From: a virus | DNA length: 64,000 nucleotides | Virus record (IMG/VR): IMGVR_UViG_3300046837_000274 | Strand: one strand, 5' to 3' | Part shown: positions 3,125-50,371 of the stretch, piece by piece | How the letters are laid out: every line of letters starts with the position of its first letter | Position numbering within the stretch: the stretch's first letter is position 1 | Translations under genes and position numbers: made by a program | The notes under the pieces: generated by a model | The model's input: the letters and a program-made list of their open reading frames with translations, nothing else | The model's database searches: none | Told to the model about the DNA's origin: nothing

Positions 3125-3519
3125 CAGTCTTTGATGTCGAGCACCAGCCCGACGCCCCTGCGGAAGGAGTCAAGCGCTGCTGGAAGCCCGCTCGCGTTCA
3201 GCGGAAAGTGCCCGTCTGCTGCATCGACGAGCGCCGCCACCAGCCCCGCGCAAAGCGCATCGAGCCAGATGCCCGGCTCGTCGCTGCGCTCCGTCTGCGA
3301 AGGACTCTGCTCGATCACGTTCCAACTGTTGAGAAAAAGCGTGTTGTCTGGCGCATCGCTTTGCTCGACGCCTGAGACGCGCATTCCATTGTCGAGCGCC
3401 AGCGTGGCGACCCCGGCGGGCGAGATAGCAGCGATTGCGCCGAAGTAGTCGTCTCCGCATTCTGAGCGATAGACGACGCGAGCACCGGCTGCTGGCTGTT
3501 GCTTTTTAGTTTCCGACAT
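3124..3519 (-). CDS. hypothetical protein
   Basis: 131-aa ORF in the late operon. It overlaps both neighbours by 1 and 14 nt. No recognisable motif. Confidence 0.45.
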   Translation of the reverse strand: MSETKKQQPAAGARVVYRSECGDDYFGAIAAISPAGVATLALDNGMRVSGVEQSDAPDNTLFLNSWNVIEQSPSQTERSDEPGIWLDALCAGLVAALVDAADGHFPLNASGLPAALDSFRRGVGLVLDIKD

Positions 3520-4138
3520 ACAGCCACCACCACCAGTTCACGACCGGATGCACCGGGCGGAACCACACGACGTCGGGGCCGATGTGATAGCCAGGATAGA
3601 GGTCGTCGACCGCCGCGCGCACGCCGCTCCAGTTGATGTCGTGCCCGAGCAGCCAGCCGTTCGCACGCACCTTCGGCAGCCACGCGATGATGTCGGCGCG
3701 GCACGCGCCCTCGCTGTGGTCAGCGTCGATGAACACGAAGTCCAGGCTTCCGTCAGGCACCTTCTCGGCGGCCTCGACGCTTAGCGTTTCGAACATCGCC
3801 CAGCGGTCTTTGAACGGAGCGAGATTAGCCTCCGCAAGTATGCGCAGCGCGTCATGGTCCCAGCACATAAAATCGTCCGGCCCGGCGTGGTCGAAGAACA
3901 CCCTCCGTGCATCGACCCCGATCATGTGCAGTTCTGGATGTTTGCCCAGCAGGTAGGACGATGTGCGACCTTCTGCGACGCCGATCTCGGCCCCCATCTT
4001 CCAGTCGAAGTGCTCGATCAGGAACGACAGGAAGTGCTTGCGCTCCCACCATGGCGGAACCGAGCGCGGCGGTATCGACTGCGGAACCAGAGGCGGGATG
4101 TCGAAGCCTGGAATGGGCTTCGGGAATTGCGTCTGCAT
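3506..4138 (-). CDS. class I SAM-dependent methyltransferase (Methyltransf_24 / O-MTase-like)
   Basis: 210 aa. Motif I 'GAEIGVAEGRTSSYL', then 'MIGVDA', 'LDFVFIDADHS' and 'NGWLLGHD'. Its ATG shares one base with the connector gene stop. Confidence 0.7.
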   Translation of the reverse strand: MQTQFPKPIPGFDIPPLVPQSIPPRSVPPWWERKHFLSFLIEHFDWKMGAEIGVAEGRTSSYLLGKHPELHMIGVDARRVFFDHAGPDDFMCWDHDALRILAEANLAPFKDRWAMFETLSVEAAEKVPDGSLDFVFIDADHSEGACRADIIAWLPKVRANGWLLGHDINWSGVRAAVDDLYPGYHIGPDVVWFRPVHPVVNWWWWLYVGN

Positions 4139-15271: not shown

Positions 15272-15798
15272 CAGTGCATCACTGGGCGCGGCGGCGCGTT
15301 CGCAACGTATTCGGCCAGCGGGACGTGCTTGCGCTTGCCCTGCTTCGTGTCGGCATGCGGCAGCTTGACCTCGGGTCCGAGCGGCTGCGCGTAAGCGCGT
15401 GCTCGTGCTGTCGGCGAGAAGCCCAACTCCCCTGCGGCCTTCAGCATGATCATCGCCTGCTTGTTCATGATGCCGAGATAGAGCGACGGAAACGGCATCG
15501 GCATGCCGCGCTGGCGCATCAGCAGCGTTTGCGTCGTGCGCAGCAGTTCCGCAGCGCGGCGGTGGGTGTCTTCAGCCACCACCCAGACCGCCAGCACGCC
15601 TCTGTCCAGGCGGCGCAGCAGCCCCGGCGGTGCGCTTGCCAGCGCGTGCCTCCAGCCGTCGACCTGTTCTTCCGTCAGCCAGTGCGGAGGGTCTTCAAGT
15701 GAGCCTGGAGCCTGCGGCTCGGCGTCGTTCATGCGCCGATGCCCGGTCTTGCCGTGCAGCTTCGCCAGCGCGGTCGGCTTCGGCTTTCGCCCTTTCAT
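15271..15798 (-). CDS. terS: terminase small subunit, P27 family
   Basis: 175 aa. 'MKGRKPKPTALAKLHG...PPHWLTEEQVDGWRHAL' is the P27-type N-terminus. Lies directly upstream of terL. Confidence 0.8.
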   Translation of the reverse strand: MKGRKPKPTALAKLHGKTGHRRMNDAEPQAPGSLEDPPHWLTEEQVDGWRHALASAPPGLLRRLDRGVLAVWVVAEDTHRRAAELLRTTQTLLMRQRGMPMPFPSLYLGIMNKQAMIMLKAAGELGFSPTARARAYAQPLGPEVKLPHADTKQGKRKHVPLAEYVANAPPRPVMH

Positions 15799-16666
15799 CC
15801 CTCATCTCCTTCAGATTGGTCAGTCGCATTCCGAATTCGTTGATTCTGTCATCGACGCTGACCCCTTCTCGGAGCACTGGCCGATTGTGACGAAACGGTC
15901 GGTAGTCAACCTGATGGTGCCAGCGTCCATAGCGCGTCACCAGCTTCGTCACGTCGGGGCGGAGCGCCACCAGCATCTGGCTTTTCGGCAGCGTGCCACC
16001 GACGTAAATCGTGTCGGTGTTACCTCCCTTCATGTGCAAGGTGCGAACTTTTTTTTGCAAAAAGGCATTGAAAAGCACCGTGCACCAGCGGGCTTTGAGC
16101 ATGCGCAGACTCAAGTCCGTGTCTTCATTGTAACGGCCACGCCACCGAAACGGCACGTCATTGCGAATCAAATTGCATGAATAAATACGGGTATTGAACG
16201 TCAGCGGAGGGCGCACTCCCCGGCGCGGAGCGAACGACTCATAGTTCGGTCCTGCCATCGCGATGTTGCGATAACGCAGGCAGAAGTCCTCCACGGCATA
16301 GAACATCGTTCCGTCAGCGACCGGAACTTTGGCGTTCCGATGCCAGCGATAGAAGCGCTGAATGTTGTCATCGACTGTCCAATGCCACTCTGCGCCCTGT
16401 CTGATCGCGTGCTCCCAAGCGAAATTGCGTGCCGGTCCTGATCCTCGCCCTTTCCCCACGCCACGCGCGTCACAGGTGTCATACGCAAGCTGAAAGGCGG
16501 GGTCGAGGGTTAGAACCTCTCCCTTGATCACCTTGCGGTAGGCATCACGCTCCTGCTCTTCGACAATGATGTAGTAAGGCACTCGCAGTTCATCGAATGC
16601 GCGAGCCGTCAGGCGGCTTTCCCACCTTCCCTTACTGACAATGTAGACGGGAAAACGGGGGTTCAT
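15695..16666 (-). CDS. GT-A-like glycosyltransferase, paralog 2 (possibly TET/JBP-associated GT / GREB1-like family)
   Basis: 323 aa, alignable over its full length to 16663..17526. Shared blocks 'VYIVSKGR', 'GSGPARNFAW', 'WHWTVDDNI', 'NEDTDLSLRMLKA', 'GGNTD'. The 3' end overlaps terS by 104 nt. Confidence 0.45.
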   Translation of the reverse strand: MNPRFPVYIVSKGRWESRLTARAFDELRVPYYIIVEEQERDAYRKVIKGEVLTLDPAFQLAYDTCDARGVGKGRGSGPARNFAWEHAIRQGAEWHWTVDDNIQRFYRWHRNAKVPVADGTMFYAVEDFCLRYRNIAMAGPNYESFAPRRGVRPPLTFNTRIYSCNLIRNDVPFRWRGRYNEDTDLSLRMLKARWCTVLFNAFLQKKVRTLHMKGGNTDTIYVGGTLPKSQMLVALRPDVTKLVTRYGRWHHQVDYRPFRHNRPVLREGVSVDDRINEFGMRLTNLKEMRDERAKAEADRAGEAARQDRASAHERRRAAGSRLT

Positions 16667-17526
16667 GCCGCTATCAGCCGCAGGCCATGTTCATCCGCGT
16701 TAGAAGGGATCACCAGTCCGTCTCGCAGCACCGGCTTTATGTGAGCGAACGCGCGGTAATCCACATAGTGATGCACCCTGCCGAAGCGCTGCGTGATCCG
16801 CGTCACGTCCGGGTGCAACGCTACGATCATACGGCTCTTCGGCACCGTGCCGCCTCGGTATAGCTCGTCTGTGTTGCCGCCGCGCATCGTCAGCGTCGTT
16901 TGTTTCGCCTGAAGGAAGGCGTTGAAGAGCACCGTGCACCATGACGCTTTCAGCATCCGCAGCGACAGGTCGGTGTCCTCGTTGAAGCGCGCGCGCCAGC
17001 GAAATGGCAGATCGGTTCGAATCAGGTTGCAGGAGTAGATGCGGGTGTTGATCGTGAACGGAGGAATAAGCTGTCTGCGCTTGGCGAAGAAGACGTAATT
17101 GGGCCCTACCATGCCGACGTTCTGATAGCGCTCGGCGAACTCCTCCATGAGCCGAAAGCACGAGCCGTCTGCCAGCGGAATCTTCAGATTGTGCGCGAGC
17201 CGGTAGAATGCCCTGATGTTGTCATCGACTGTCCAATGCCACTTCGCTCCAGCCGCTTTGGCGTGATCCCATGCGAAGTTGCGAGCAGGTCCAGAGCCGC
17301 GCGTCTTGTTTCCTCCATGCGCGTCGCAGGTGTCGTAGTCACGCTGATATGCCGGATCGAGTACCAGTATCCTGCCCGGGTCGATTACGGCGGCGTATAG
17401 GTCGAATTCCTGCCGCTCGACGATGATCCGAAACGGCACCTGCATCCGTTCCAGCGCTTTGACTGTCAACCGGCTGTCCGCTCGGCCCTTGCTCACGATG
17501 TAGATCGGGTGGTGCGGGTTGGTCAT
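16663..17526 (-). CDS. GT-A-like glycosyltransferase, paralog 1
   Basis: Start reset to ATG 17526 ('MTNPHHPIYIVSKGR' aligns with the paralog's N-terminus). 287 aa. ATGA overlap with paralog 2. Confidence 0.45.
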   Translation of the reverse strand: MTNPHHPIYIVSKGRADSRLTVKALERMQVPFRIIVERQEFDLYAAVIDPGRILVLDPAYQRDYDTCDAHGGNKTRGSGPARNFAWDHAKAAGAKWHWTVDDNIRAFYRLAHNLKIPLADGSCFRLMEEFAERYQNVGMVGPNYVFFAKRRQLIPPFTINTRIYSCNLIRTDLPFRWRARFNEDTDLSLRMLKASWCTVLFNAFLQAKQTTLTMRGGNTDELYRGGTVPKSRMIVALHPDVTRITQRFGRVHHYVDYRAFAHIKPVLRDGLVIPSNADEHGLRLIAA

Positions 17527-18235
17527 CGACTTTCCATCGCTGGTTAGCTTGCGCGACACGCGGCTCGGCAGGATGCCAGAGATATTTCGTCTTGTCAGTT
17601 ACCGACTGACCCATGCGATTCGCGAAGTCGTCCACGCCGCTCTGGTCTTTGAAGTGCACGACGATCGAGCGCCACGCCATCAGATCGTCCTGCGAGAACG
17701 CGGGCATGCCGCCCCACTCGCGATTCGGATCGAAGTCGCGATCCGGCTCCAGCAGGTGCACCAGTTCAGCCTCGCCGAAGCCGAGCAGCGTCACGTCGAA
17801 CGAAGACGCTGCCAGTTCGCCCACTTCCTTGATCAGTAGCTCCTGCGACCAGTCGGCGTTCATCGCCAGCTTGTTGTCGGCGATCACGTAAGCCCTGATC
17901 TGCTCGGGCGACCAGCCGCGCGCGACCATCACCGGTATGTCCGGCAGGTTCAGCAGCGCCGCTGCCCGTGTTCGCGCGTGCCCCGCGATCAGCACCCCCT
18001 GCTCGTCTACCAGCACCGGCATCGTCCAGCCCCACTGGCGGATGCTGTTCGCAAGCTGCTCGATCTGCTCGGGACTGTGCAGGCGCGCGTTGGCCAGATA
18101 CGGCTTCAGCGACGCAATCGGGCGACGCTCGATCTTGTCGGCAGGCCACGCTCGGGGCTGTCGCTCTGCTGACGCAGGGGGAGCAGGCTTCCCGGCAGGG
18201 GGTCGAGGGGGACGCTTCGCTGCTTTGCGTGCCAT
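17339..18235 (-). CDS. ParB/Srx-fold N-terminal domain protein
   Basis: 298 aa. 'IASLKPYLANARLHSPEQIEQLANSIRQWGWTMPVLVDEQGVLIAGHARTRAA', and 'GWSPEQIRAYVIADNKL'. The last ~60 codons run 188 nt into the next gene in another frame. Confidence 0.7.
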   Translation of the reverse strand: MARKAAKRPPRPPAGKPAPPASAERQPRAWPADKIERRPIASLKPYLANARLHSPEQIEQLANSIRQWGWTMPVLVDEQGVLIAGHARTRAAALLNLPDIPVMVARGWSPEQIRAYVIADNKLAMNADWSQELLIKEVGELAASSFDVTLLGFGEAELVHLLEPDRDFDPNREWGGMPAFSQDDLMAWRSIVVHFKDQSGVDDFANRMGQSVTDKTKYLWHPAEPRVAQANQRWKVDDQPAPPDLHREQGPSGQPVDSQSAGTDAGAVSDHRRAAGIRPIRRRNRPGQDTGTRSGISA

Positions 18236-22352: not shown

Positions 22353-22507
22353 GACGCGACCCGCGTGGGCGTCTCGTCAGCGGAGCGTTCGACGATCGGG
22401 ATCGGGCGCGGCGTGTTGCCGACGATCTTCTGTTCACGCTCCATGATCATGCAGGCGAGACGATGCACGACGCGGTCCCACAGGTCAGCAGGTGCGGGCG
22501 GGATCAT
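22349..22507 (-). CDS. hypothetical small protein
   Basis: 52 aa from ATG 22507 (ATGA overlap with the DUF932 gene stop). Confidence 0.3.
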   Translation of the reverse strand: MIPPAPADLWDRVVHRLACMIMEREQKIVGNTPRPIPIVERSADETPTRVAS

Positions 22508-23616
22508 GCCGCCATCCTCTGCGGGTCGCCCTCGGCCAAGCTGATGCGCTTCCACTCACTCGCAGGCAAGTCGATGATCAGCCCGCCCATGCGCTCTATT
22601 TCCGACGCCCGGTCGTAGCTTTCAACATCTTCCGCCGTGCGCGTGATCGCGTTAAACATTCCGTAACGCGACAGATCAGCGCCCTCTATCAGATGGCGCA
22701 GGACGCTCTTCTGTTCGCCCTCCGTCAGCCCGAAGCGCTTGGCCGTGAAATTGACCGACTGCACCGGGTCGCCCGCGATCTTCTGTGTGGTCGTCTCAGT
22801 GATCTTCGCGATGCGGTCGCGGAAGCGCATCTCGTTGAACGCGCCCTTGGCGACGTCGCGCACCTGCATCCAGAGCGCTTTGTCGGTCGCGGCGCGCGTC
22901 GCATCGCTCAGCAGCGCGGCGACGTTCTCCCCGGCAGCGAGTTCGTGACGCGCTCCCACGTGGCGGCGTTTCATGCTGTCCTGGGAGAAGACCGCCATGT
23001 TGGTGCACGCGCGCGTCCAGATCGCCGTCTCGATGCTGAGCGCGCCCGAGCCGACTTCGCTGTTGCTGATCACGATAGCCGGGACGCAGGTATCGAAGAT
23101 GTGGTGCGAGCCGTCGCCCATGCGCCCGCCGCCGGGGATGTCAGCATTGATGCGCTGATCGACCGCCTTCAGGTAGAGCCGCCGCTCGGTGATTTCGCAC
23201 GAGATGACTTCCAGCTTCAGATCAGCGAAGACCGGCAGCACCGCTTCGGCGAGGTCGATGTTCTCCAGCGGGCGATACGCGTCCGACAGCCACGCGCGCG
23301 TGATCGTGTCCATGGTCCTGATCAGCCGCTTTTCCGGGATGCCGTTGTGCATCCACGCGTTGACGTTGTCGGCGAGCAGGCGCGGCATCTCCTTGCGCAT
23401 GCGGTCGTAATACTGGCCGGGGATGCGCGTGTAATTGCCGATCTGATCGTGCGCCAGTTCGGTGATGCCGAACTCGTCGCTGCCCACGCGCAGCGCCAGC
23501 GCTCCGTTGTTCGACTGCATGCTGATCACGTCCGTCGTGGCAATCATGTCGCGCTTGGCGTTGCTCTGGCGTTCAATTTCAGCCGCCAGTTGGCTGATGC
23601 TCTTGCCGGTCTTCAT
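22504..23616 (-). CDS. DUF932-family protein (phage/plasmid-like)
   Basis: Start reset to ATG 23616 behind GAGAGGA. 370 aa. 'MKTGKSISQLAAEIERQ...', 'LAHDQIGNYTRIPGQYYDRM', 'IVISNSEVGSGALSIE'. Confidence 0.7.
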   Translation of the reverse strand: MKTGKSISQLAAEIERQSNAKRDMIATTDVISMQSNNGALALRVGSDEFGITELAHDQIGNYTRIPGQYYDRMRKEMPRLLADNVNAWMHNGIPEKRLIRTMDTITRAWLSDAYRPLENIDLAEAVLPVFADLKLEVISCEITERRLYLKAVDQRINADIPGGGRMGDGSHHIFDTCVPAIVISNSEVGSGALSIETAIWTRACTNMAVFSQDSMKRRHVGARHELAAGENVAALLSDATRAATDKALWMQVRDVAKGAFNEMRFRDRIAKITETTTQKIAGDPVQSVNFTAKRFGLTEGEQKSVLRHLIEGADLSRYGMFNAITRTAEDVESYDRASEIERMGGLIIDLPASEWKRISLAEGDPQRMAA

Positions 23617-23685
23617 AGGAGTTCGTCCTCTCTCGATGTTGCCGGGGGTCGTCCCCACGGTTCTGCGCCATCTGGTGCATACCAA

Positions 23686-23705
23686 CCCCAGCCCGCAGGC
23701 TGGGG
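23686..23705 (-). terminator. hairpin downstream of the lipoprotein gene (terminator candidate)
   Basis: Minus strand CCCCAGCC-TGCG-GGCTGGGG, a perfect 8-bp stem 10 nt after the stop. It is followed by TTGGTAT (weak U tract). Confidence 0.4.
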
Positions 23706-23715
23706 GCCGCATGCG

Positions 23716-26463: not shown

Positions 26464-26787
26464 TCACCCCTCCCAGCCGATAGGCAGGGGGATAGAGGCT
26501 CCCCGCTCGTCCACCGCATAGATCATAGCGGAGCGACCGTGCACGCCGTGGGCCGCGTCGAGGCTGGCCGCAATGGCACGAGCCTCGTCGAGGGTCGATG
26601 CTTCGGCGCGGTAGGTCTCGACCGGCCCCTTGCGGAAGTGCACGCGGAAGCGAGTCGCGCGGCGGATCTTCTCGTGATCGGCGATGTCGGCAGGGTGCAG
26701 CTTGCGCGGCAGCTTCGGCACGAGCGCTTGCGTGGCGGCGTAGGCGGCGCGCTGCTCGATCTGTCGGCGGGTGCGGTCGTCGTTCAT
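26464..26787 (-). CDS. hypothetical protein
   Basis: 107-aa ORF preceded by ATCAGGGGACAGCCCG-ATG, the same Shine-Dalgarno block as the cassettes. Confidence 0.45.
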   Translation of the reverse strand: MNDDRTRRQIEQRAAYAATQALVPKLPRKLHPADIADHEKIRRATRFRVHFRKGPVETYRAEASTLDEARAIAASLDAAHGVHGRSAMIYAVDERGASIPLPIGWEG

Positions 26788-26811
26788 CGGGCTGTCCCCT
26801 GATGGCGCGAA

Positions 26812-26836
26812 GCGCTGGGGTCGAGTGCCCCAGCGC
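26812..26836 (-). terminator. hairpin between 26848..27081 and 26464..26787 (terminator/attenuator candidate)
   Basis: GCGCTGGGG (26812-26820) and CCCCAGCGC (26828-26836): perfect 9-bp stem, 7-nt loop, 12 nt after the upstream stop. No clear U tract. Confidence 0.35.
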
Positions 26837-26847
26837 CCGCCGTTGCG

Positions 26848-27081
26848 TCAGTTCGGAGCGATCATGCCCCGCACGTCGTCGTAGGACTCGGAGACGGCGA
26901 AGCCCCCGCCGTCCGTGAACGTAATGCGCGTCCCCGGACGGTTCTCCTTGCGCGGATAGAAGCAGCGGATCGCGGCCACGTTGACCGTGACGGGCGCAGT
27001 GCGCTCCTGCGGCCCCTCCCCCTCTTCGTTGTCGGTGTAGGGGTCGCGCCCCGTGACCTTGTGCAGTGCGATCATCGTCAT
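26848..27081 (-). CDS. hypothetical protein
   Basis: 77-aa ORF with CAGGAGA Shine-Dalgarno. Confidence 0.45.
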   Translation of the reverse strand: MTMIALHKVTGRDPYTDNEEGEGPQERTAPVTVNVAAIRCFYPRKENRPGTRITFTDGGGFAVSESYDDVRGMIAPN

Positions 27082-27096
27082 GGTGTCAGTCTCCTG

Positions 27097-27639
27097 TTAG
27101 CTGGCGTGATTTCTATTCCGGTCGCCAGCATGTCCGGCATCGCTCGGGCGCTTCGCAAGCTGCGGGCGGCCCGTGCGTCGGTAGCGCGCGCGCTCGACAT
27201 GAGACGGCGCTTTGTCGTCATAAGATTCTGCGACCGCGTCGCGTAGCGCGCGATGCGCCGCTTTCGACAGGCCGAAGTCTTCGTAACCCTGCTTGATCAC
27301 GTTCAGGTAGTAGGCTGACGGCGGGAAGATGCCGGTCGAGTTCATCACGTAAATCAGCATCTCTGACCCGTGCTCTGGAAACGCGTTGATGGGGACATAC
27401 TCTTTGCGATACAGCCCGCCGCGCACCCCTTCGTAGAGGTCGAGTTCCTTTTCGCACTCGGACGTGATCGCCCAGATACCGCCGTGGCAGACTGCGCCCG
27501 CTTCGGCGATGCAGTCGGCGACGCCCCGGAACACGAGACGACGTCCGCGCAGTTTCATCCGCGCCAGAGGCACTGCGTTCGGGCAACGCCGCTCCATCTG
27601 CTCCATGTTCAAGTTGGAGCCGTAAGCAAACATCAGCAT
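27097..27639 (-). CDS. gamma-glutamylcyclotransferase (GGCT/AIG2-like) family protein
   Basis: 180 aa. 'MLMFAYGSNLNMEQMERRCP', 'GGIWAI', and 'LDLYEGVRGGLYRKEYV' (candidate catalytic Glu context). Basic C-tail. Confidence 0.7.
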   Translation of the reverse strand: MLMFAYGSNLNMEQMERRCPNAVPLARMKLRGRRLVFRGVADCIAEAGAVCHGGIWAITSECEKELDLYEGVRGGLYRKEYVPINAFPEHGSEMLIYVMNSTGIFPPSAYYLNVIKQGYEDFGLSKAAHRALRDAVAESYDDKAPSHVERARYRRTGRPQLAKRPSDAGHAGDRNRNHAS

Positions 27640-27640
27640 G

Positions 27641-27877
27641 TCAGGATCCCTTGTACTCGACGCCCATGGCAGTCATGCCGAGAGCGAGTGCGGAACAGGC
27701 GAGGCCGATATACTTCGGCACGTCGTGCTGGCTGTTCTCCCAGCGCGTCCACGCGCCCCGCGAGCAGCCGAGCGCTTTGCATGCGTCGCGCTGCGAGTAG
27801 CCCATGCGCTCGCGCCACGCAGCCAGCGTCGCCCCCGCGAGGGGGCTTGCGCTGTTCGTCTCGATCTTGTTGGCCAT
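27641..27877 (-). CDS. XRE-family HTH regulator
   Basis: Start reset to ATG 27877 behind AGGAGA with a 7-nt spacer. 'LAAWRERMGYSQRDACKALGCSRGAWTRWENSQHDVP'. Confidence 0.65.
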   Translation of the reverse strand: MANKIETNSASPLAGATLAAWRERMGYSQRDACKALGCSRGAWTRWENSQHDVPKYIGLACSALALGMTAMGVEYKGS

Positions 27878-27903
27878 GATGCAGTCTCCTGTGGTTGCAG
27901 TGA

Positions 27904-28917
27904 TCACGCTGCCCACGCGACCGGCGCGGACAGCGCCGACGTGCGAGCGCGGAAGTAAGCGATTTCGGCGGCTTCGGCTTCGATGGTTGTCATCAGCGCG
28001 GAGAACGTCGACGGGGTCGCGTCGACGACGGACCCGCCCTGCGCGAAGTAACGAGCGTTGCGGCCCTGACGAACGACCGTCAGACGCAGGCCAGTCGCCT
28101 TCTCCAACTGCGACACTGTCAGCGAACCCCAGCCCGTCGCCGCCTTGACTTCGCTCCCGCTGACGCCCTCGGGGCGCATCGCCAGATCGCCGACGATCCG
28201 GCTCTTCGTTCCGTGACGCGCCCGGTTGATCTGTGCTTGCACTGTCGAGATTGACTTCCCGGCGCGAGCAGCGGCGACCATCCGGAGGCAGAACTTGGCC
28301 CAGGCGACGGCTTTGCTGCCCTCAAGGGTGCCCGAGTGCTGACGAAATTCAACCGTCTGATAGCGGCGGTAGGACGTCAGGTTCAGCTTGTGATAACGCG
28401 CGTCCATCGCGCCCGCCGGGAGCGTGCGAATGACTGAGTCAAGATCGGTCGCGACATTGATCGCGGCGACGTTCGCCGACGTGACTGAGCGGCAGTAGGC
28501 GTTGGCGCTCGCGCGGCGCGACGGCGGCATGAAGCAGTCGATGACCGGCTCGAAGTGTGCGTAAAGCTTCAGCAGGTTCTTGAAAAAGTCGATCGGGGCG
28601 TTCGCAGCGCCGACGTGCACGTGAAGCCCGCACTTCTTGCTGACGGTGCACCCGAAGTCGGTCAGCGCTTCCATCACGAGCACGACAGCGTCGAGGCCCG
28701 CTTGCCCGGTGAGGATCGGAGACACCACTTCGATGCCCCGGCGAACGTCACCCAGCGACCCGTCAGTTACGATCTTCCAGTGCGGGCGCGTGCCGTGATT
28801 GTAGCTTTCGGCGAGGCAGTAGATGCCGCGAGCGAGGATCGCTTGCGCAGCTTGTGAAGCCGTCGCCCCCTCGGGCAGGTAGCACTCAATTTCAATTCCG
28901 AAAGTCGCGTTCAACAT
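27904..28917 (-). CDS. amidoligase (Amidoligase_2, GS/GCS2-like) fused to a DUF3489-like winged-helix tail
   Basis: 337 aa. 'FGIEIECYLP', 'WKIVTDGSL', 'GIEVVSPIL', 'CGLHVHVG', 'QTVEFRQHSGT'. C-terminal 'LAMRPEGVSGSEVKAATGWGSLTVSQLEKATGLRLTVVRQGRNARYF'. Confidence 0.7.
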   Translation of the reverse strand: MLNATFGIEIECYLPEGATASQAAQAILARGIYCLAESYNHGTRPHWKIVTDGSLGDVRRGIEVVSPILTGQAGLDAVVLVMEALTDFGCTVSKKCGLHVHVGAANAPIDFFKNLLKLYAHFEPVIDCFMPPSRRASANAYCRSVTSANVAAINVATDLDSVIRTLPAGAMDARYHKLNLTSYRRYQTVEFRQHSGTLEGSKAVAWAKFCLRMVAAARAGKSISTVQAQINRARHGTKSRIVGDLAMRPEGVSGSEVKAATGWGSLTVSQLEKATGLRLTVVRQGRNARYFAQGGSVVDATPSTFSALMTTIEAEAAEIAYFRARTSALSAPVAWAA

Positions 28918-28965
28918 CGGGTCTGTCCCTCGTTTCGCGTCGGGGTCTATCCCCGGCGTCTGGCA

Positions 28966-28995
28966 TCAATATGAGCCAACCTGTCGGCGATGCAA
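28966..28995 (-). promoter_or_regulatory. sigma70-like promoter candidate for the amidoligase operon
   Basis: Minus strand TTGCAT (28995-28990), 18 nt, TATTGA (28971-28966). Shine-Dalgarno GAGGGACAGACCCG-ATG at 28917. Confidence 0.35.
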
Positions 28996-29023
28996 GAGAG
29001 AAAATGCGGCTGCCGAAACTTTT

Positions 29024-29269
29024 TTAGCGGTGGCGCTCGGGCATAGGGGGCGGGGGATTGGCGCGACGGAACGCGGCGAGACGAGCGACCCAAGCCGCGA
29101 CCGGCTCCGGCGGGACTGTGCTGCCGCTGAACCAGCGGCGCGTTGCCCGGTCGGTCGGCAAGCCCAACTCGATGGCAAGCCATTCCGCGTTCCAGCCGAG
29201 CGCCAGCACGTCCTGAATGAACTGCCGGACGTCCGTGCTGGGCTGCTCGATGTGGGCCGCGTCGCTCAT
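29024..29269 (-). CDS. small HTH-like regulator (Cro/YdaS-like candidate)
   Basis: 81 aa. 'LAIELGLPTDRATRRWFSGSTVPPEPVAAWVARL'. First leftward gene beside the divergent control region. Confidence 0.45.
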   Translation of the reverse strand: MSDAAHIEQPSTDVRQFIQDVLALGWNAEWLAIELGLPTDRATRRWFSGSTVPPEPVAAWVARLAAFRRANPPPPMPERHR

Positions 29270-29322
29270 GGCTTCAGCACGTAGCTACTGGCGCGGCGCT
29301 CAGCAAGCGCTCGGCAGTTCAA

Positions 29323-29352
29323 ATCGGACACCGGTTGTCCGATCTGTCCGAT
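29323..29352. promoter_or_regulatory. operator-like repeats ATCGGACA / TGTCCGAT
   Basis: An 8-bp perfect inverted repeat, ATCGGACA (29323-29330) and TGTCCGAT (29336-29343), separated by 5 nt. A third TGTCCGAT lies at 29345-29352, 54-83 nt upstream of ATG 29269. Confidence 0.45.
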
Positions 29353-29802
29353 TTGCCGATTTGACGGATTCGTGGGTCACGTCTCCACACGTCTCCGCTC
29401 CCGAGCGAAAGCGAGGCGCGGCCTCGCCGCGTAAGAAGAGGTAGTACGCGCGCACGTGAAGCGCGCTGCCTACGGGCAGGGCGCAAAAATCGACATCACG
29501 GCTGGGAGCGTCTGCCGGAGAGCCATTTTCGAGGCCGGATCCGCGTTGGCCCGAAGCTTGCCCGACGGTATGCGCTGGGCGCATGCGAATCCGGTTCTCA
29601 GTCAAATTATTTTTGAGAACCGGCCTACAGACCGCCCACGGGGGAGCCTGCATGCTCATAGCGGAGAGGGGGGCAAATCCTTCCTACCCCGCTCCTACGG
29701 CTCCTACCTGTGCCCAGCTTTTTCTCGCCCCCCGCCTGTCCACCGCCCGTCATGTGTGGGCTAGATAGCTGGGGTGATTGCCAGAATTCTGGCCAACGCC
29801 GC

Positions 29803-29882
29803 TGGACAGGCCGTTCTGACGCGCTTACGTATGCCTCTGCCGAGAGCGCCGCTCCGGGACGCAAACAATCAGGGGTCACCCG
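29803..29882 (+). promoter_or_regulatory. promoter-leader cassette, copy A
   Basis: In order: TGGACA (29803-29808), 17 nt, TACGTA (29826-29831), 8 nt, CCGAGAGCGCCGCTCCGG (29840-29857), 10 nt, ATCAGGGGTCACCCG (29868-29882), then ATG 29883. Confidence 0.5.
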
Positions 29883-30065
29883 ATGAAAAACTTCTCCTCC
29901 TCCACCCTCCGCACTCTGGCCCGCAAGGGCATCACGATCCTTCACCCGGTCGCCATCCCCGGCGCGGGCGACATGCCCTTCGCCAACGTCGACCTCGGCT
30001 ATGCCGTAGACGACAACGGCACCCACCGCATCTGGACATTCGCCCAGGTGCGGGAGGCCGCGTGA
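29883..30065 (+). CDS. hypothetical protein
   Basis: 60-aa ORF, first gene of the rightward operon. Confidence 0.45.
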   Translation: MKNFSSSTLRTLARKGITILHPVAIPGAGDMPFANVDLGYAVDDNGTHRIWTFAQVREAA

Positions 30066-37946: not shown

Positions 37947-38134
37947 GGGTTTTCCAACTGGTAGAGTTTGACCCGCAGCAGATCGAGCACTTCCTCAAGG
38001 TTGTTCACTTCGATGCGGATGGTGAGCGGCATCGACTCCGCGTCTTCTTTCACCACTGCGATCAGGTGGCCGATGTCGTCCATGTGCGCTCTGAGCACGT
38101 TGATTCGTTCCGGTGCTGTCGTCGCCTCGTTCAT
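37943..38134 (-). CDS. hypothetical small protein
   Basis: 63 aa from ATG 38134 (ATGA overlap with the methyltransferase stop). Confidence 0.4.
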   Translation of the reverse strand: MNEATTAPERINVLRAHMDDIGHLIAVVKEDAESMPLTIRIEVNNLEEVLDLLRVKLYQLENP

Positions 38135-39183
38135 GCTGCCTTCTCCGCTTCGTTTCCCCACACCACCCACCCCTCGCGACGCTTGCGCCCGAACATCTCC
38201 AGGCGCGGCAGGTTCGGAAACATCGTCTCGATCATCTGCGCGAAGACGTCCGGCTTCGCACTGTGCGCGCCAACGTCGGCCTCGATCACCGACGGGAACT
38301 GCTCGCCGGGTGCCGGTGCTGGCACCTGCCCGCGCGTCGCCAGCAGCAGGAGTTCGTGCTTGTTGCGGAACCAGTAGCCGGTTCCGATGCGGTCCTTGAC
38401 CCACACGCAGTGGGTCTGAAGCGAGAAGCCCCAGGCGGTCAGCACGAAGTGCGCTGCGGGCTGCATGGCGGCGGTCGACCACAGGAACAGCACGCAATCC
38501 CTGGCGGCGGGCAGGACGATGTTACCGATCTCGTCGGGCGTCATGGTCGGGTAGTGGTTGTCGGCTGCTCGATCCATCCCCGTCTCGCGCGAATACGGCT
38601 CCCAGCGCCACGGGGGGTCGGCGTAGATCACCCCGAACACCTGCCTTCCGAGCTTGCGGGAGGCGGCGAGCGTCGCTTCGGCGAGGCTGCTTTCACGCTC
38701 TGACCGACGTTCCTTTTTGATGATCTGGCGCACGTCGCGCAGACGCAGGCGCTTGCCGGGGTTCAGCTTGACGATCTTCGCGACTTTCTCGGCCTCGGCG
38801 GCTGCTTTCTCGGTGAGGTTCGCGCTCTTCAGTGCCGCTTTTTTCGACACTTCCCCCCCTGAAAGTGTCGATCCCCCGCCCCCTCGCTTCCCCGGAGGCG
38901 AACCACCTGGGCTGGCTTGTGGCAGGGCTGCTGACAGATCACCGATGCGACCAATGGCGCGGACCTTGATGTCTTCGAACCACTGCTCGGCTTCTTTGTC
39001 CTCACGCTGCCGGGAGTAGGCACGCAGCGCTTCCGCCTTATCGCGGATGTCCTTCGCCTCATCGACGCGCGCGCACTCGGCAAGCTGAGTGCGCATCGCC
39101 TCGTAGCGCACGAGCGTCCCCGCGCCTGTAGGAGCGCGGTGGGCCGGTTTACCTCTCGGGGACGTCTGATCATGCACGGTCAT
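38131..39183 (-). CDS. MT-A70-family N6-adenine DNA methyltransferase
   Basis: 350 aa. 'FGVIYADPPWRWEPYS' (DPPW), 'NHYPTMT', 'LFLWST', 'GYWFRNKHELLLLATRG', 'HSAKPD'. Confidence 0.85.
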   Translation of the reverse strand: MTVHDQTSPRGKPAHRAPTGAGTLVRYEAMRTQLAECARVDEAKDIRDKAEALRAYSRQREDKEAEQWFEDIKVRAIGRIGDLSAALPQASPGGSPPGKRGGGGSTLSGGEVSKKAALKSANLTEKAAAEAEKVAKIVKLNPGKRLRLRDVRQIIKKERRSERESSLAEATLAASRKLGRQVFGVIYADPPWRWEPYSRETGMDRAADNHYPTMTPDEIGNIVLPAARDCVLFLWSTAAMQPAAHFVLTAWGFSLQTHCVWVKDRIGTGYWFRNKHELLLLATRGQVPAPAPGEQFPSVIEADVGAHSAKPDVFAQMIETMFPNLPRLEMFGRKRREGWVVWGNEAEKAA

Positions 39184-41924: not shown

Positions 41925-42590
41925 TCAGTTCGGACGCTGCTCGTCGGCGATGTCTTCGATTTCAGCCGACGTCAGGTAACCGGCCCGGCCTTTCTTGCCG
42001 CCGCCTTTGCCACCCTTGCCGCCTTTTCCTCCCACGAGGGACAGCTTTGCTGCCCCCTTGCGCACCGGGCGCTTGCGCGACGCATCGGCTTGCACGCCGC
42101 CGCCACCAGCTTTCAGTTCGACGCCAGCCGCGCGCTGGCCGTTCGCGTGCCACTTCGACCAGATCGCAGCGAACTCCGAGCCGGACGGATACGGGCAATC
42201 TTCAGCGGGCACCCCGTGCTTGCCTGCGGCGTAGCCGGATTCCTCGGCCCCGGCGACATTGTCTTCCGCGCGCGCTTTCGCACTCACGTTCAGGTGGTCG
42301 GCAGCGGAGAGGACGTCGTCGAGCGTGACGATCGAGCGCAGCGCCATCATGCGCAGGCGCTCCACCTCGTGCGCAGCGACGATCGCCGGATCCTGGCGGC
42401 TGGCGGCGTTGGTGTCGATGATCGCCTTGGTGTCCAGCCCCTCGGCCTTGAAGCGCTTCAGCAACGCCCGGTAAGCCCCCTGCGCCTCGTCGACGACGCG
42501 CTTCGCGGCGGTCGCTTCCCGCATGGCGGCAAGCCGCTCTTCGTTGGAAACGCTCGACGGATCACGCTTTTCGGCTGCTTGGCGGGGCAT
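41925..42590 (-). CDS. hypothetical protein with Gly/Lys-rich C-terminal region
   Basis: Start reset to ATG 42590 behind GGAGGA. 221 aa. 'LVGGKGGKGGKGGGKKGRAGY'. First gene of the leftward operon. Confidence 0.5.
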   Translation of the reverse strand: MPRQAAEKRDPSSVSNEERLAAMREATAAKRVVDEAQGAYRALLKRFKAEGLDTKAIIDTNAASRQDPAIVAAHEVERLRMMALRSIVTLDDVLSAADHLNVSAKARAEDNVAGAEESGYAAGKHGVPAEDCPYPSGSEFAAIWSKWHANGQRAAGVELKAGGGGVQADASRKRPVRKGAAKLSLVGGKGGKGGKGGGKKGRAGYLTSAEIEDIADEQRPN

Positions 42591-42861
42591 GGATTTCCTC
42601 CGGTTGACGGTCGCGAAACCGCGAGCATGGTCCTGCCGCTTCTGCGCGGTCAACCACCGATTTTCCGAACGCGGATAGTTCTGCCGTAACAGCACCGGCA
42701 AAGATTGCCGCTTGCAAAGGATCGCGGCTTGCGTTCTGTTTAAAGCGGAACGACGGAGCGCCTTCAGAACGCCCCGCCGTCCCTGACCGATCAGACTTCA
42801 AGGTGCATGGTCCGATGGCTAAGACGAGACAAGCGCATATCCCCGCCTTCAGGCAAGCGCG

Positions 42862-45114: not shown

Positions 45115-45851
45115 TTCAGTTGACTTGCGCGCAGTGCGGAAAGGCTTTCAATCGCTCACCATCCGAGGTCAACGACCGGAATTTTTGCTCGCGGGCATGT
45201 TATTCGACTGCAACCGAACAAACGCAGCGCGCCTGCGAACAGTGCGGAGTCGCTTTCAAAGCTCCTGCGAAGCAACGCTTTTGCTCGCGGGCGTGCGGGA
45301 TTGAACCTCGGAAAGAACGGCTCCAATTCGCCTGCGCTCAATGCGGGGCGGCGTTTGCGCGCAAAGCGTCGAAGGTGCGAAGCAAGTTCTGCTCTTATGA
45401 GTGCGCGCACAGAGGTCGGCGAACTCGGCGAACGTTGATGTGCGTGCAATGCAGAACACCCTTTCAGGTCAAGAACAATCGCGCCGATACCGCAAAATAC
45501 TGTTCTATTCCCTGTAGGTGGGACGCGGCCCGCGCAGTCACGCCCGAAGAACGTCGCGACAAGTCCATTGAATACAAACGCCGCTGGCGAGCCGCGAACC
45601 CTGAGAAGATGGCACGTGAGCGCGATACCCAGCGGCAGCGCGACCGTCTCATCAGAGCCGCTTGGACTGTCTCCGAGCGAGAAGAATACAACGAGCATCA
45701 GAATGAGTTGTATGCGGTGAAGGCAGCAGCAGCGAAGTTTCTCCGCGAGATTGGGGCAATCAAACGCGGTGCTTTAACTAGTAATATATGTGCCGCCGCC
45801 CTCCGCTACGTGCGCGAGCAAGGCTTACTTCCAAACAGGAGCACACCATGA
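45111..45851 (+). CDS. protein with four tandem CxxC...CxxC zinc-ribbon repeats (no HNH domain)
   Basis: 246 aa. Repeats such as 'CAQCGKAFNRSPSEVNDRNFCSRAC', 'CEQCGVAFKAPAKQRFCSRAC', 'CAQCGAAFARKASKVRSKFCSYEC' and 'CVQCRTPFQVKNNRADTAKYCSIPC'. Confidence 0.6.
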   Translation: MIQLTCAQCGKAFNRSPSEVNDRNFCSRACYSTATEQTQRACEQCGVAFKAPAKQRFCSRACGIEPRKERLQFACAQCGAAFARKASKVRSKFCSYECAHRGRRTRRTLMCVQCRTPFQVKNNRADTAKYCSIPCRWDAARAVTPEERRDKSIEYKRRWRAANPEKMARERDTQRQRDRLIRAAWTVSEREEYNEHQNELYAVKAAAAKFLREIGAIKRGALTSNICAAALRYVREQGLLPNRSTP

Positions 45852-47722
45852 ACGACACCGTCAACGACGTGAAGCCGCCGCCGCCGACCCGCACCAGCGT
45901 CGCCCGCCTGAAGGATTGCAAGAGCCTCGCTGAAGCTTTCCAGACCGAAGAACTGAAGTCGCTGATCGCAGCAGCAGCGCCGAAATTCATCGACCCCGCT
46001 GCGATGCTGCGCACATGGATTCAAGCGGCAGCGCGTCAACCGCTGATCTACAAAGCCGACTTCCGGCAAGCGCTCGGCGCGTTTCAGTCACTCGCGTTCC
46101 TCGGATTGCAGCCGAACACGCACTTGAATCTGGCGCACATCATTCCGTTCAAGAAGAAGAGTTGGAACCCACTCACGCGCAAGCGGGACAAGGAGAGTGT
46201 CGAGATTCAAGTGATCATCGGATACCCGGGCTACATCGAACTGGCGCACCGATCCGGTGTCGTCAAAGCGCTGCACGCTGACGTCGTCTATGACGCGCGC
46301 GCGGAGGAATTCGATTACGAATACGGCACTAACCAGCACTTGCGGCATCGCGGCAAGCCGCCCGGTTTCAAGCCCGAGCACGACCCGCTCTACGCTTACG
46401 CGTGGTTCAAGCTGGAGCACGCCGATCAGTTCGAAGTCATGACGTGGAACGAAGTGCTGACGATCCGCAGCCGCAGCCAGTCCTACCGCACGGCGATGCT
46501 CGCGCACGACGAGGCGAAAGCCGAGAACAAGCGCATCCCGTCCACCTACACCGACGCCCCATGGATTCGTGACTTCGAAGAGATGGGCAAGAAAAGCGCT
46601 CTGCGCCGGGGCATGAAGTGGCTTCCGAAGTGCCCCGAACTGCGTGCGGCGGCAGCGCTGGAAGACGCACAGGACAGCGGCGCGCTCGACTGGGGGCCGG
46701 TGATCGACGGCAGCGCGTCACCGCTCGACGGGGACATCCCCGAGGGCGAGCCTGATCGGGAGGACGCGGGCGACCCCACCGTTGCGGGCAGCTTGCAGAC
46801 CCAGCGCCCGTCGCAGCGTGAGCGTCAGCCGCGCGAGCCGCGCCAGCCGCCGCCGAAAGTCCAAGACGTCGAAGTGCTGACGTTCGAAGCGGGCATCGTC
46901 GACGAGTTCGGCGAGATAGCGTCTGACGTGATCACAGATCCCGAGCAGTTCGCCCGCGCGCTGCTCGCGCACTGGCGGCGGATGCCCGACAAGAGCCGCA
47001 CGGAAGCGCTGCTCGATTTCAACGCCGACGCGCTCGACGCGCTGGACAAGATGTTTCCGCGCACCCGTCCGATCATCGCTGAGATACGTCCTGATGACGT
47101 GCAGGACGAGCCGCAGGGCGCGGCAGGGGAGCCGGTGGGCAGCGGTCAGCCAGACGAGCGCTATGCACCAGCAGCCGTGCCCGCTGGCGGCTCCAGCGGT
47201 CGTTCCTGGGCGTCCTACGTGGCTGACGTCAAAGCTGCACTGGCGACGATCCCGCCCGGCATCGAAGCGGCAGTCAGGTGGGCTGAAGCGCAGCAGGCGA
47301 CACTCGTCTCGGCACCCCCGGCGCAGCGGCTGCTGGCGATCAATGCGATCAGTCAGCATCTCGCGAAAGCCGGGCTCAGCGCCGTCCCCGCGTGGATGTC
47401 CGATCTGGTCAAGCCGAAAGCGAAGACTGCGCCGCCGAGCGACGTGCAGGGGAATGACGCGCCGCCGATCAGCGCCGATGAGAAGCAGGTGGAAGGCTTC
47501 GAAAAGAACGTGCAGGCGTATCTGAACATGGAGCCGGGTGATGCGCCGCTCGTGGAATTCGAATCCTACGCGAAGAGTGGTGCAGTGCAGGCGGCGATGA
47601 AGCGGCTGCGCGAGACGAACACGCCCCTCTATGACCGGGCCTACCGAGCGTTCGATGCGGGGCAAGCAGAACTGCGCAAGCGCGCTGCTAAGTCGCCACC
47701 CGCATCGGGGGACGTGGAATGA
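45848..47722 (+). CDS. recT: RecT-family single-strand annealing protein with ~320-aa C-terminal extension
   Basis: Start reset to ATG 45848 (ATGA overlap). 'SLAFLGLQPNTHLNLAHIIPF', 'VIIGYPGYIELAHRSG', 'PWIRDFEEMGKKSALRRGMKWLP'. A Pro/acidic linker and further domains follow. Confidence 0.75.
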   Translation: MNDTVNDVKPPPPTRTSVARLKDCKSLAEAFQTEELKSLIAAAAPKFIDPAAMLRTWIQAAARQPLIYKADFRQALGAFQSLAFLGLQPNTHLNLAHIIPFKKKSWNPLTRKRDKESVEIQVIIGYPGYIELAHRSGVVKALHADVVYDARAEEFDYEYGTNQHLRHRGKPPGFKPEHDPLYAYAWFKLEHADQFEVMTWNEVLTIRSRSQSYRTAMLAHDEAKAENKRIPSTYTDAPWIRDFEEMGKKSALRRGMKWLPKCPELRAAAALEDAQDSGALDWGPVIDGSASPLDGDIPEGEPDREDAGDPTVAGSLQTQRPSQRERQPREPRQPPPKVQDVEVLTFEAGIVDEFGEIASDVITDPEQFARALLAHWRRMPDKSRTEALLDFNADALDALDKMFPRTRPIIAEIRPDDVQDEPQGAAGEPVGSGQPDERYAPAAVPAGGSSGRSWASYVADVKAALATIPPGIEAAVRWAEAQQATLVSAPPAQRLLAINAISQHLAKAGLSAVPAWMSDLVKPKAKTAPPSDVQGNDAPPISADEKQVEGFEKNVQAYLNMEPGDAPLVEFESYAKSGAVQAAMKRLRETNTPLYDRAYRAFDAGQAELRKRAAKSPPASGDVE

Positions 47723-49702: not shown

Positions 49703-50371
49703 TTACGCGCGGCGCGCGCGCACCCAGCCGAGGCCGATTAGTGCCACACCGAGAAGAGCGAGTGATGCTGGCTCGGGAGCGGGAACCGCAGAAGCATCGG
49801 CATCGCCGGTGAAAAAAGCGTTGAACGGCGCGATCGTGCCCGGCCCGCCTGTCGTGTCGATCGACAACGGCGGCGTCAGGCTGGACAGCGCGAGCGTGAA
49901 GGACGACGGCGGTAGCGTCGCCAGCCCGATGTCGGAGGTCAATACCAGCGTGTCCGGCGGGCTGGCGATGTTGACCGATAGCTGATCACCACCGGAGGTT
50001 CCGAACGCAGCGTCGGAGAAGGTTCCGGACAGATAGTTCGTCCCGGCTCCGCCAGCAGCCGAAGTGATTTCGAACGAACCATTGTAGTGCTGAAGGATAC
50101 CGGAGACGCCGACCGGAACGGCGGTGTCGATGCTGTTCGCCGACAGTTGGATGAACGCGCCGGTCGGCGTGACGAGGCCCATCTGAATCTGCGTGATGAT
50201 GATGGGGTCGTTGCTGACCTGAAAGTGCGTGCTCGTCCCCGGCGAAGTCTCGGTCGCGGTCAGGCCGGTGCTCGCGCCGGTTTCCCCGAAGCCGATGATC
50301 TGGATCGCGTGGGCAGGCGCGGTCAGGGCGGTGGCCCCGAGCAGCGCACTGGCGATGAGAAGCTTGCGCAT
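49703..50371 (-). CDS. PEP-CTERM sorting-domain protein (cargo/moron)
   Basis: 222 aa. Signal peptide 'MRKLLIASALLGATALTAPAHA', a Ser/Thr/Gly-rich body, and C-terminal 'VPAPEPASLALLGVALIGLGWVRARRA' (PEP, TM, basic cluster). Confidence 0.75.
   Translation of the reverse strand: MRKLLIASALLGATALTAPAHAIQIIGFGETGASTGLTATETSPGTSTHFQVSNDPIIITQIQMGLVTPTGAFIQLSANSIDTAVPVGVSGILQHYNGSFEITSAAGGAGTNYLSGTFSDAAFGTSGGDQLSVNIASPPDTLVLTSDIGLATLPPSSFTLALSSLTPPLSIDTTGGPGTIAPFNAFFTGDADASAVPAPEPASLALLGVALIGLGWVRARRA

Follow-up and report, generated by a model that had tools for sequence, protein, structure and literature searches.

Phage amidoligases are among the commonest annotated yet never characterised enzymes of early regions, and the locus described here raises the question of what such a ligase does when it is encoded together with a gamma-glutamylcyclotransferase (GGCT). 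The locus lies on a 67.7 kb metagenomic phage contig (IMG/VR record IMGVR_UViG_3300046837_000274), most of which is covered by the stretch of 64,000 nucleotides (nt) that we analysed and call the window. On its minus strand the window encodes an amidoligase of 337 amino acids (aa; positions 27904-28917), an XRE/Cro-type helix-turn-helix (HTH) protein of 78 aa (27641-27877) and a GGCT/AIG2-fold protein of 180 aa (27097-27639), and the amidoligase is the second gene of a leftward early operon. A preliminary description, made from the letters alone, had placed three open reading frames (ORFs) here and proposed a write/erase pair; the three ORFs, their coordinates and strand, and every motif it had quoted were found again in the translations. 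Our analysis shows that the ligase, of glutamine synthetase (GS) fold, and the GGCT-type enzyme, both with intact catalytic residues, are inherited as a unit heading phage early operons, an arrangement that recurs in dozens of unrelated phage contigs. As the best reading, we infer from family chemistry that the two enzymes would write and erase a gamma-glutamyl-type bond.

The product of 27904-28917 matches Pfam Amidoligase_2 (PF12224) over profile positions 3-245 of 245 (E 8.5e-39; 134.3 bits versus a cut-off of 22) and the PHROG family phrog_2443 'amidoligase' (E 3.6e-41). Its AlphaFold2 model (mean predicted local distance difference test score, pLDDT, 88.5) finds YbdK/GCS2 (E 4.6e-6), Dop, GmaS, GS and PafA as best folds in the PDB by Foldseek, so that Pfam, PHROG and Foldseek agree with the Amidoligase_2/GS-GCS2-like identity given in the preliminary description. 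The similarity is remote (10-14% identity, template modelling (TM) scores of 0.3-0.44), but the model adopts the GS-like catalytic fold despite the low TM scores, and its best PDB neighbours, YbdK, Dop/PafA, gamma-glutamylmethylamide synthetase and GS, all activate the gamma-carboxylate of glutamate. The ligase profile had no match among PDB sequences, and no solved PF12224 structure was detectable by sequence. The catalytic core (residues 1-222; 28252-28917, minus strand) carries the motifs GxExE, ExVSP, GLHVHVG and TVEFRQHSGT and is compact, with ∼220 aa versus 350-470 in YbdK or GS. Across 35 full-length homologues of 44-60% identity, the acidic residues E9, E11, D52, E63, E123 and E190 are invariant, as are K48, R60, H99, H101, R134, R135, R174, K177, N179, R192 and H194. 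These include the ligand-type residues on whose conservation the ligase claim had been made to depend (E9, E11, E63, H99, H101, E190 and R192), and by motif pattern the ExE, E, H and ExR residues would correspond to the metal and phosphate ligands of GS-fold ligases.

The product of 27097-27639 passes the cut-offs of both AIG2_2 (PF13772; 36.6 bits, cut-off 27) and GGACT (PF06094; 36.4 bits, cut-off 22.8) and matches phrog_2520 'gamma-glutamyl cyclotransferase' (E 1.7e-20). Its AlphaFold2 model (pLDDT 92.9) fits best on human GGCT (2i5t, 3cry and 2rbh; E 2e-10 to 9e-10, TM 0.64-0.69, 24-26% identity), while the structures of YkqA, YtfP, ChaC2 and GGACT give weaker matches. The family profile likewise recovers human GGCT (E 2.4e-20), with the phage segment 'lyfayGsnL', which holds YGSN, aligned to the human substrate-binding motif (residues 18-26) and 'LDryeGv' to human 'LDEQEGV'. 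Six residues, A5, G7, S8, N9, L10 and E70, do not vary among 31 homologues, and E70 of the LDxYEG motif is presumably the counterpart of the catalytic Glu98 of human GGCT. With both Pfam cut-offs passed and with fold and motifs matching the human enzyme, the protein is indeed the clear GGCT/AIG2-fold member it had been taken for. At the N-termini of the ligase and the GGCT no evident signal peptide is seen by eye in the translations (no predictor was run), which fits a cytoplasmic site of action.

The tie between the two genes was assessed in a census of non-redundant fetched loci, scored with locally built hidden Markov models. In all 34 loci in which the ligase carries an insert of the DUF3489 type (tailed ligases), a GGCT gene follows in the same orientation, usually no more than a few hundred bases away; none has a gene resembling a glutamine amidotransferase (GAT-like), and 20 have an XRE-like gene. 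Among 36 loci whose ligase has no such insert, a GGCT lies downstream on the same strand in 20 and a GAT-like gene is present in 7, with XRE-like genes in none. The pairing that the preliminary description had seen in this one phage therefore reaches beyond it, a GGCT following the tailed ligase in 34 of 34 loci. In the closest viral relatives the order ligase-(XRE)-GGCT is retained, with a gene for a 77-aa protein next, and in five more distant homologues (46-56% identity), all on long contigs, a small HTH gene and then the GGCT come after the ligase in loci with differing flanks and terminase families; overall, gene order is conserved among contigs at 46-61% identity despite unlike flanks. 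A profile-based scan of IMG/VR returned at least 565 viral contigs with ligase relatives, and the form with the DUF3489 insert is abundant in metagenomic phages. The tailed ligase is absent from 50,697 curated phage records, cultured phages and plasmids give only matches to the catalytic domain (26-42% identity), and a single-protein scan of cellular genomes gave one distant match in a metagenome-assembled genome, which has no bearing on the cellular distribution. No near-identical DNA to the window was found in cultured phages.

The ligase extends beyond its catalytic core with three elements, all on the minus strand: a DUF3489-type winged helix-turn-helix (wHTH; residues ∼232-292; 28042-28224), a C-terminal two-helix hairpin (residues ∼304-329; 27931-28008) and the conserved extreme C-terminus Trp-Ala-Ala-COOH (27907-27915). 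The direct match of the ligase to DUF3489 (PF11994) stays below the gathering score (18.4 bits versus 29.5, E 0.0023). However, an exhaustive search with the tail alone identified 44 of 46 sampled non-ligase proteins as PF11994 (best E 4.6e-17), among its hits many short proteins bearing the DUF3489 module C-terminally, and many ligase homologues have a precomputed PF11994 match. In the model the region forms three helices and a beta-hairpin wing; the mean net charge of the winged helix is +4.3. The DUF3489-like tail described earlier thus holds on reciprocal homology and on the model, whereas its direct Pfam score does not reach the cut-off and the 'tail' turns out to be composite. The hairpin, with its motif '...L..LM..IEA...E.AYF.AR...' and two helices (305-311 and 316-329) modelled at high pLDDT, has a counterpart ('...AEIAYFRAR...') in most, not all, of the tail-less, GAT-linked and unlinked phage ligases fetched. 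Since the hairpin is common to the wider ligase family, DUF3489 is an insertion between the catalytic core and the hairpin.

The same site has received other material. Three other lineages of ligases without DUF3489 carry unrelated inserts of ∼130 aa there; the insert of loci L084/L094 scores just below the Pfam cut-off for HTH_11 (24.6 bits versus 25), and those of L069 and L087 have zero Pfam matches. By eye the L069 and L087 inserts look helix-turn-helix-like. A DNA-binding-type domain may thus have been acquired repeatedly at this position. In locus L028 a stand-alone DUF3489 protein of 84 aa (3493-3747) is encoded immediately upstream of a tailed amidoligase, so the module occurs both free and fused in one locus. 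Of 120 homologues, 101 have -AA as their last two residues and 91 have the full -WAA, compared with ∼1.7% expected from composition; in the set of 35 homologues A337 is invariant and W335 nearly so. Hydrophobic C-terminal ends of this kind resemble degrons recognised by ClpXP-type proteases.

The GGCT has an appendage of its own. Its C-terminal extension (residues 126-164, SYDDKAPSHVERARYRRTGRPQLA; 27148-27264, minus strand) is predicted to form two helices (126-141 and 147-156), and its distal part is basic, clade-specific and arginine-rich ('APSHxERxRxRRxGRPxLA'), with P145, E149, R152 and G157 invariant. Human GGCT aligns only up to about residue 144, and the arginine-rich segment lies beyond the aligned part. 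The mean net charge of the extension is +5.9, and it is found in 33 of the 34 GGCT partners of tailed ligases versus 3 of the 20 partners of tail-less ligases.

We propose, with somewhat less than even confidence, that the two-enzyme module at the head of the early operon both forms and cleaves an amide bond of the gamma-glutamyl type, the two reactions having one target in common. Bond identity, reaction directions, macromolecular target and timing we infer as follows. In a first step the ligase would spend ATP to convert a carboxylate into an acyl-phosphate, most likely the gamma-carboxylate of glutamate by analogy with all characterised enzymes of this fold, and the activated carboxylate would then be joined to an amine on the target. 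In a second step the GGCT would attack the gamma-glutamyl amide, provided that its alpha-amino group is free, giving 5-oxoproline and the amine. The insert of the ligase and the extension of the GGCT are inherited together and both are basic, which suggests that the two enzymes share a polyanionic or macromolecular partner, for instance DNA, the nucleoid or a protein bound to DNA, and do not act on a free metabolite. The two appendages are a weak argument that the target is a macromolecule or associated with DNA. The -WAA end may shorten the life of the ligase, so that writing would precede erasing, and the XRE protein would be an accessory regulator.

Several points weigh against this proposal. 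Writer and eraser in one operon would run a futile cycle unless they are split by time or specificity; a short-lived ligase would resolve this cycle of co-expressed enzymes, but the idea of a -WAA degron is speculation. The catalytic residues were mapped to GS ligands by motif pattern and not by residue-level superposition. The tailed ligases form one clade, and the coupling of insert and extension may therefore be simple co-inheritance. A GAT-like partner, as found in sister clades, fits the supply of an amine as well as erasing. Finally, a winged helix can also serve autoregulation or protein binding. BirA, a biotin ligase fused to a winged-helix repressor domain, illustrates the former: it too is an ATP-dependent ligase joined to a wHTH and offers the role of an autoregulator for the DUF3489 insert, although the folds are unrelated and no operator common to the relatives of the window cassette was found.

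Pairs of enzymes that add and remove a gamma-glutamyl bond are known from other systems. In Actinobacteria PafA and Dop write and erase a gamma-glutamyl isopeptide on proteins. They share the GS-like carboxylate-amine ligase fold with the window ligase, but at 10-13% identity and with a far larger core, and their eraser Dop is a paralogue of the ligase instead of a GGCT; for the window cassette no gene for a Pup-like tag was identified. In the butirosin (BtrJ/BtrG) and putrescine (PuuA/PuuD) pathways an amine receives a gamma-glutamyl group from an ATP-dependent ligase, and the group is later removed, by the GGCT-fold BtrG in the former and by the GAT-family PuuD in the latter. Both kinds of remover adjoin phage Amidoligase_2 as well. 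Unlike the phage cassette, which encodes no intervening enzymes, these are small-molecule pathways with such enzymes, and BtrJ is an ATP-grasp protein in contrast to the GS-like window ligase.

Combinations of the two phage families have been published before, and the novelty assigned to this cassette in the preliminary description was overestimated. LUZ24-, phiEco32- and phiRIO-1-like podoviruses have an early operon for COOH-NH2_lig (PF14395), Amidoligase_2 (PF12224), a class-II glutamine amidotransferase (GAT-II), an ATP-grasp protein and AIG2/GGCT, and the papers on them that cite Iyer 2009 and Hardies 2013 propose that the operon acts on gamma-glutamyl amide or unusual peptide bonds, with the cell wall as a possible target and superinfection as what would be blocked. 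Clostridium clostridioforme prophages likewise have phrog_2443 amidoligases adjoining a phrog_2520 GGCT. Like the podovirus operons, the window cassette combines Amidoligase_2 with AIG2/GGCT in a single early operon of a tailed phage, and the predicted chemistry is the same. These operons have their own PF14395 ligase, class-II amidotransferase and ATP-grasp gene, none of which was found among the operon genes or the other window ORFs scanned, while the window cassette adds the DUF3489 insert, the -WAA end, the basic GGCT extension and often an XRE gene. Another parallel is Bacillus phage 055SW001, which encodes an amidoligase (gp40), a DNA-binding protein (gp42) and a GGCT (gp44) in the same order on the same strand, the catalytic domain of its ligase being 33% identical to that of the window. 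Its ligase has no DUF3489 insert and its GGCT no basic extension, and in this and other Firmicute phages the DNA-binding function is a separate gene and the hosts belong to another phylum. What is new here is the minimal two-enzyme form with the DUF3489 insert, the -WAA end, the co-inherited GGCT extension and an optional XRE gene. The literature searched names no substrate for a phage amidoligase, in line with what had been stated earlier.

Partner genes of a second kind lead to an alternative that we consider unlikely, if slightly less so than the other rivals, namely a two-component amidotransferase, in which the GGCT or a GAT-like protein would free ammonia or an amine from a gamma-glutamyl donor and the ligase would couple it to an ATP-activated carboxylate on the target, like MurT/GatD or enzymes of the asparagine-synthetase type. 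The Pfam entry of PF12224 records neighbourhoods with either a GAT-like peptidase or an AIG2-family cyclotransferase. Arthrobacter phages Salgado and Ottawa and the OM43 phages have a homologous ligase with a partner gene immediately downstream, although here the partner is GAT-like instead of GGCT, the ligase has no wHTH insert and its core is 30-35% identical to that of the window. That related ligases can have either a GGCT or a GAT-like gene in one and the same position downstream suggests that the partners can replace each other in function; by established biochemistry, gamma-glutamyl amides are substrates of both partner types, and the problem of a futile cycle would be avoided. However, the LUZ24-type operons hold GAT-II and GGCT together with Amidoligase_2, so that the two are not simple alternatives, and our analysis found no evidence of a fusion or a channel. 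Canonical GGCTs are not known to pass the released amine on to a partner, which also counts against this model. Neither the window copies nor any of the tailed-ligase loci gave a GAT-like match, and Porphyromonas phages have an amidoligase with neither a GGCT nor a GAT partner.

A role in small-molecule auxiliary metabolism strikes us as about as unlikely. The cassette would then turn over glutathione, gamma-glutamyl-cysteine or gamma-glutamyl-polyamines, or convert glutamate to 5-oxoproline at the cost of ATP, and so reshape redox, nitrogen or polyamine pools of the host early in infection. The closest solved folds, YbdK, GmaS, GS and human GGCT, are indeed small-molecule enzymes, and one paper proposes an auxiliary metabolic gene (AMG) role in nitrogen metabolism for a phage with amidoligase, GAT, glutathione synthase and GGCT, but this claim is speculative. 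For soluble metabolite enzymes one would expect neither the conserved DNA-binding-type domain of the ligase nor the basic appendage of the GGCT, and the small core of the ligase departs from that of YbdK and GS. What the cassette means depends on its substrate: should the pair write and erase a mark on proteins or on the nucleoid, it would represent a new kind of reversible modification serving host takeover, whereas with small molecules as substrate it would be an ordinary auxiliary metabolic module.

The XRE gene invites a third alternative, a toxin-antidote or phage-conflict module in which the ligase would be toxic, the GGCT would neutralise its product and the XRE protein would control expression, the whole targeting competing phages or working as an addiction system. 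A small XRE gene is embedded in 20 of the 34 tailed loci, the cassette moves between unrelated phage backbones, and its place at the start of an operon resembles that of accessory 'moron'-like genes. Nevertheless, we regard such a module as quite improbable: the XRE gene is dispensable, 14 of 34 loci having none, and in PADLOC-DB the cassette proteins gave only a weak, generic HTH match, that of the XRE protein to mad1 (E 1.2e-4), and none to a defence model beyond this trivial one. The anti-defence role suggested in the preliminary description likewise found no PADLOC match and no relevant literature.

A more specific form of the write/erase proposal, which we consider very improbable, is a self-limiting switch targeted to the nucleoid. 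A ligase held on DNA by its DUF3489 winged helix, and rapidly degraded through a ClpXP-type -WAA degron, would set marks at the very onset of infection, and the GGCT with its matching basic extension would erase them later. The marks would be gamma-glutamyl or other aminoacyl groups on a DNA-bound host protein, for instance a nucleoid-associated protein or a transcription factor, or even on an aminated or carboxylated DNA base. If true, the phage would encode a reversible modification of the bacterial nucleoid that resembles those of chromatin. Equally improbable is an enzyme pair that modifies envelope precursors, e.g. the gamma-D-Glu stem peptide of peptidoglycan precursors, to block superinfection: papers citing Iyer 2009 and Hardies 2013 read the larger Amidoligase_2/GGCT operon in this way, but the ATP-grasp, COOH-NH2_lig and GAT-II genes of that operon were not found in the scanned ORFs of the window, no export signal was seen on either protein, the wHTH insert would be left unexplained, and no integrase or lysogeny marker is present among the window ORFs scanned, so that an exclusion function would have little time to act.

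The cassette is a simpler entry to a long-standing question, because one ligase and one GGCT, without the three extra enzymes of LUZ24-type operons, should be simpler to reconstitute; more tractable cultured relatives already exist. The DUF3489 insert and its site, the co-inherited GGCT extension and the -WAA end are handles that speak for a macromolecular, possibly DNA-associated target.

In order, the leftward operon comprises an 81-aa ORF, the amidoligase, the XRE gene, the GGCT, the 77-aa ORF and then small ORFs including one for a DUF6011 protein. The DUF6011 neighbour named in the preliminary description was borne out by a Pfam scan, but the sole candidate tested for its DUF932-type neighbour (22504-23712) had no Pfam match. 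For the XRE protein, which matches HTH_31 (27641-27916; E 2.3e-10), the gene call on the source contig sets the start at the ATG at 27877, giving 78 aa, while the longest ORF reaches 27916. Its homologues in the 20 tailed-ligase loci are encoded between ligase and GGCT or just 3' of the GGCT. The XRE gene was rejected as a core component and judged accessory, since it is absent from 14 of the 34 loci; its place between the two enzymes, as noted earlier, is real in this phage but it is no constant member. The 77-aa protein (26848-27081, minus strand) has weak matches to FlbD and phrog_7594 only. Its N-terminal half is acidic, and it carries the invariant motif IRCFYPRK..PGTRITFTDGGGFAV.E. A homologue is encoded in 41 of the fetched loci (L001, L025, L026, L037, L039 and others); the gene follows the GGCT at 45-250 nt in the closest clade and elsewhere lies more distant or upstream. 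It could be a fourth component of the cassette or merely a common early gene. The first ORF of the operon (g81; 29024-29269, minus strand) has gene-like codon-position GC and zero family matches. It was rejected as a cassette member because a homologue is known in just one other locus.

Upstream of the operon lies a divergent intergenic region (∼29270-29880), delimited by codon-position GC and by gene calls on the source contig. It holds a perfect 11-nt inverted repeat, CAAATCGGACA-N14-TGTCCGATTTG (29320-29355, no strand assigned), a candidate operator ∼50-85 nt upstream of the first leftward ORF, with a third half-site overlapping it. The sequence of this repeat is not kept in other loci. Three loci of one subclade (L029, L048 and L055) have a 19-nt palindrome, ATAGGGCATAATGCCCTAT, 64-96 nt upstream of the ligase that is unlike the window repeat. 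An operator common to the relatives of the cassette was rejected, as the palindromes differ by subclade and most loci have none. The promoter of its own that the cassette had been credited with at 28966-28995 could not be upheld: a sigma-70 scan of 26700-30000 found none, and the hexamers are poor by eye.

In the wider window, family scans of the ORFs find the genes for both terminase subunits (small and large), portal, prohead protease and capsid on the minus strand at 9.6-15.8 kb. The part at 31-48 kb encodes an SNF2 helicase, an O-like replication initiator, an exonuclease, RecT and an MT-A70 methylase. The large terminase is ∼40% identical to its counterparts in Burkholderia and Ralstonia phages, a weak hint to a host among the Burkholderiales. 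A 222-aa ORF (49703-50371, minus strand) ends in a PEP-CTERM motif (PF07589, 25.2 bits versus 20.7), which is unusual for a phage and hints at a host with an exosortase system. A 258-aa ORF (41925-42701, minus strand) has a sub-threshold match to ribosome modulation factor at residues 143-182 (PF04957, E 1.8e-5, 25.1 bits versus 27.9). The RecT-family protein (45788-47722, plus strand) is unusually long with 644 aa; the RecT domain takes up residues 86-284 only, and the C-terminal 360 residues have no assignment.

Two tandem TET-associated glycosyltransferases (TAGTs; PF20691, E ∼1e-40 each) are encoded at 15695-18235 on the minus strand, between the small terminase and a protein with a ParB_N domain. 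Pfam revealed no TET/JBP dioxygenase among the ORFs scanned, and the pair may form a DNA-glycosylation module that lacks a hydroxylase, has a divergent one or is supplied with it in another way. A study of thymidine hypermodification noted that, in viral contigs, uncharacterised genes for amidoligases and amidotransferases lie close to those for DNA modification. A link of the cassette to the TAGTs and to DNA hypermodification was rejected, as TET/JBP was not found and no TAGT, MT-A70 or RecT gene lies near the cassette in any other locus; it is retained only within the nucleoid or DNA-base switch described above. Two methyltransferase genes, both on the minus strand, complete the inventory: a Methyltransf_24 gene amid the head-tail genes (3506-4138) and the MT-A70 gene (38131-39183), just downstream of both the O-like replication initiator and a 294-aa ORF that has no assignment. 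These genes and the TAGT pair together suggest that this phage invests heavily in DNA modification.

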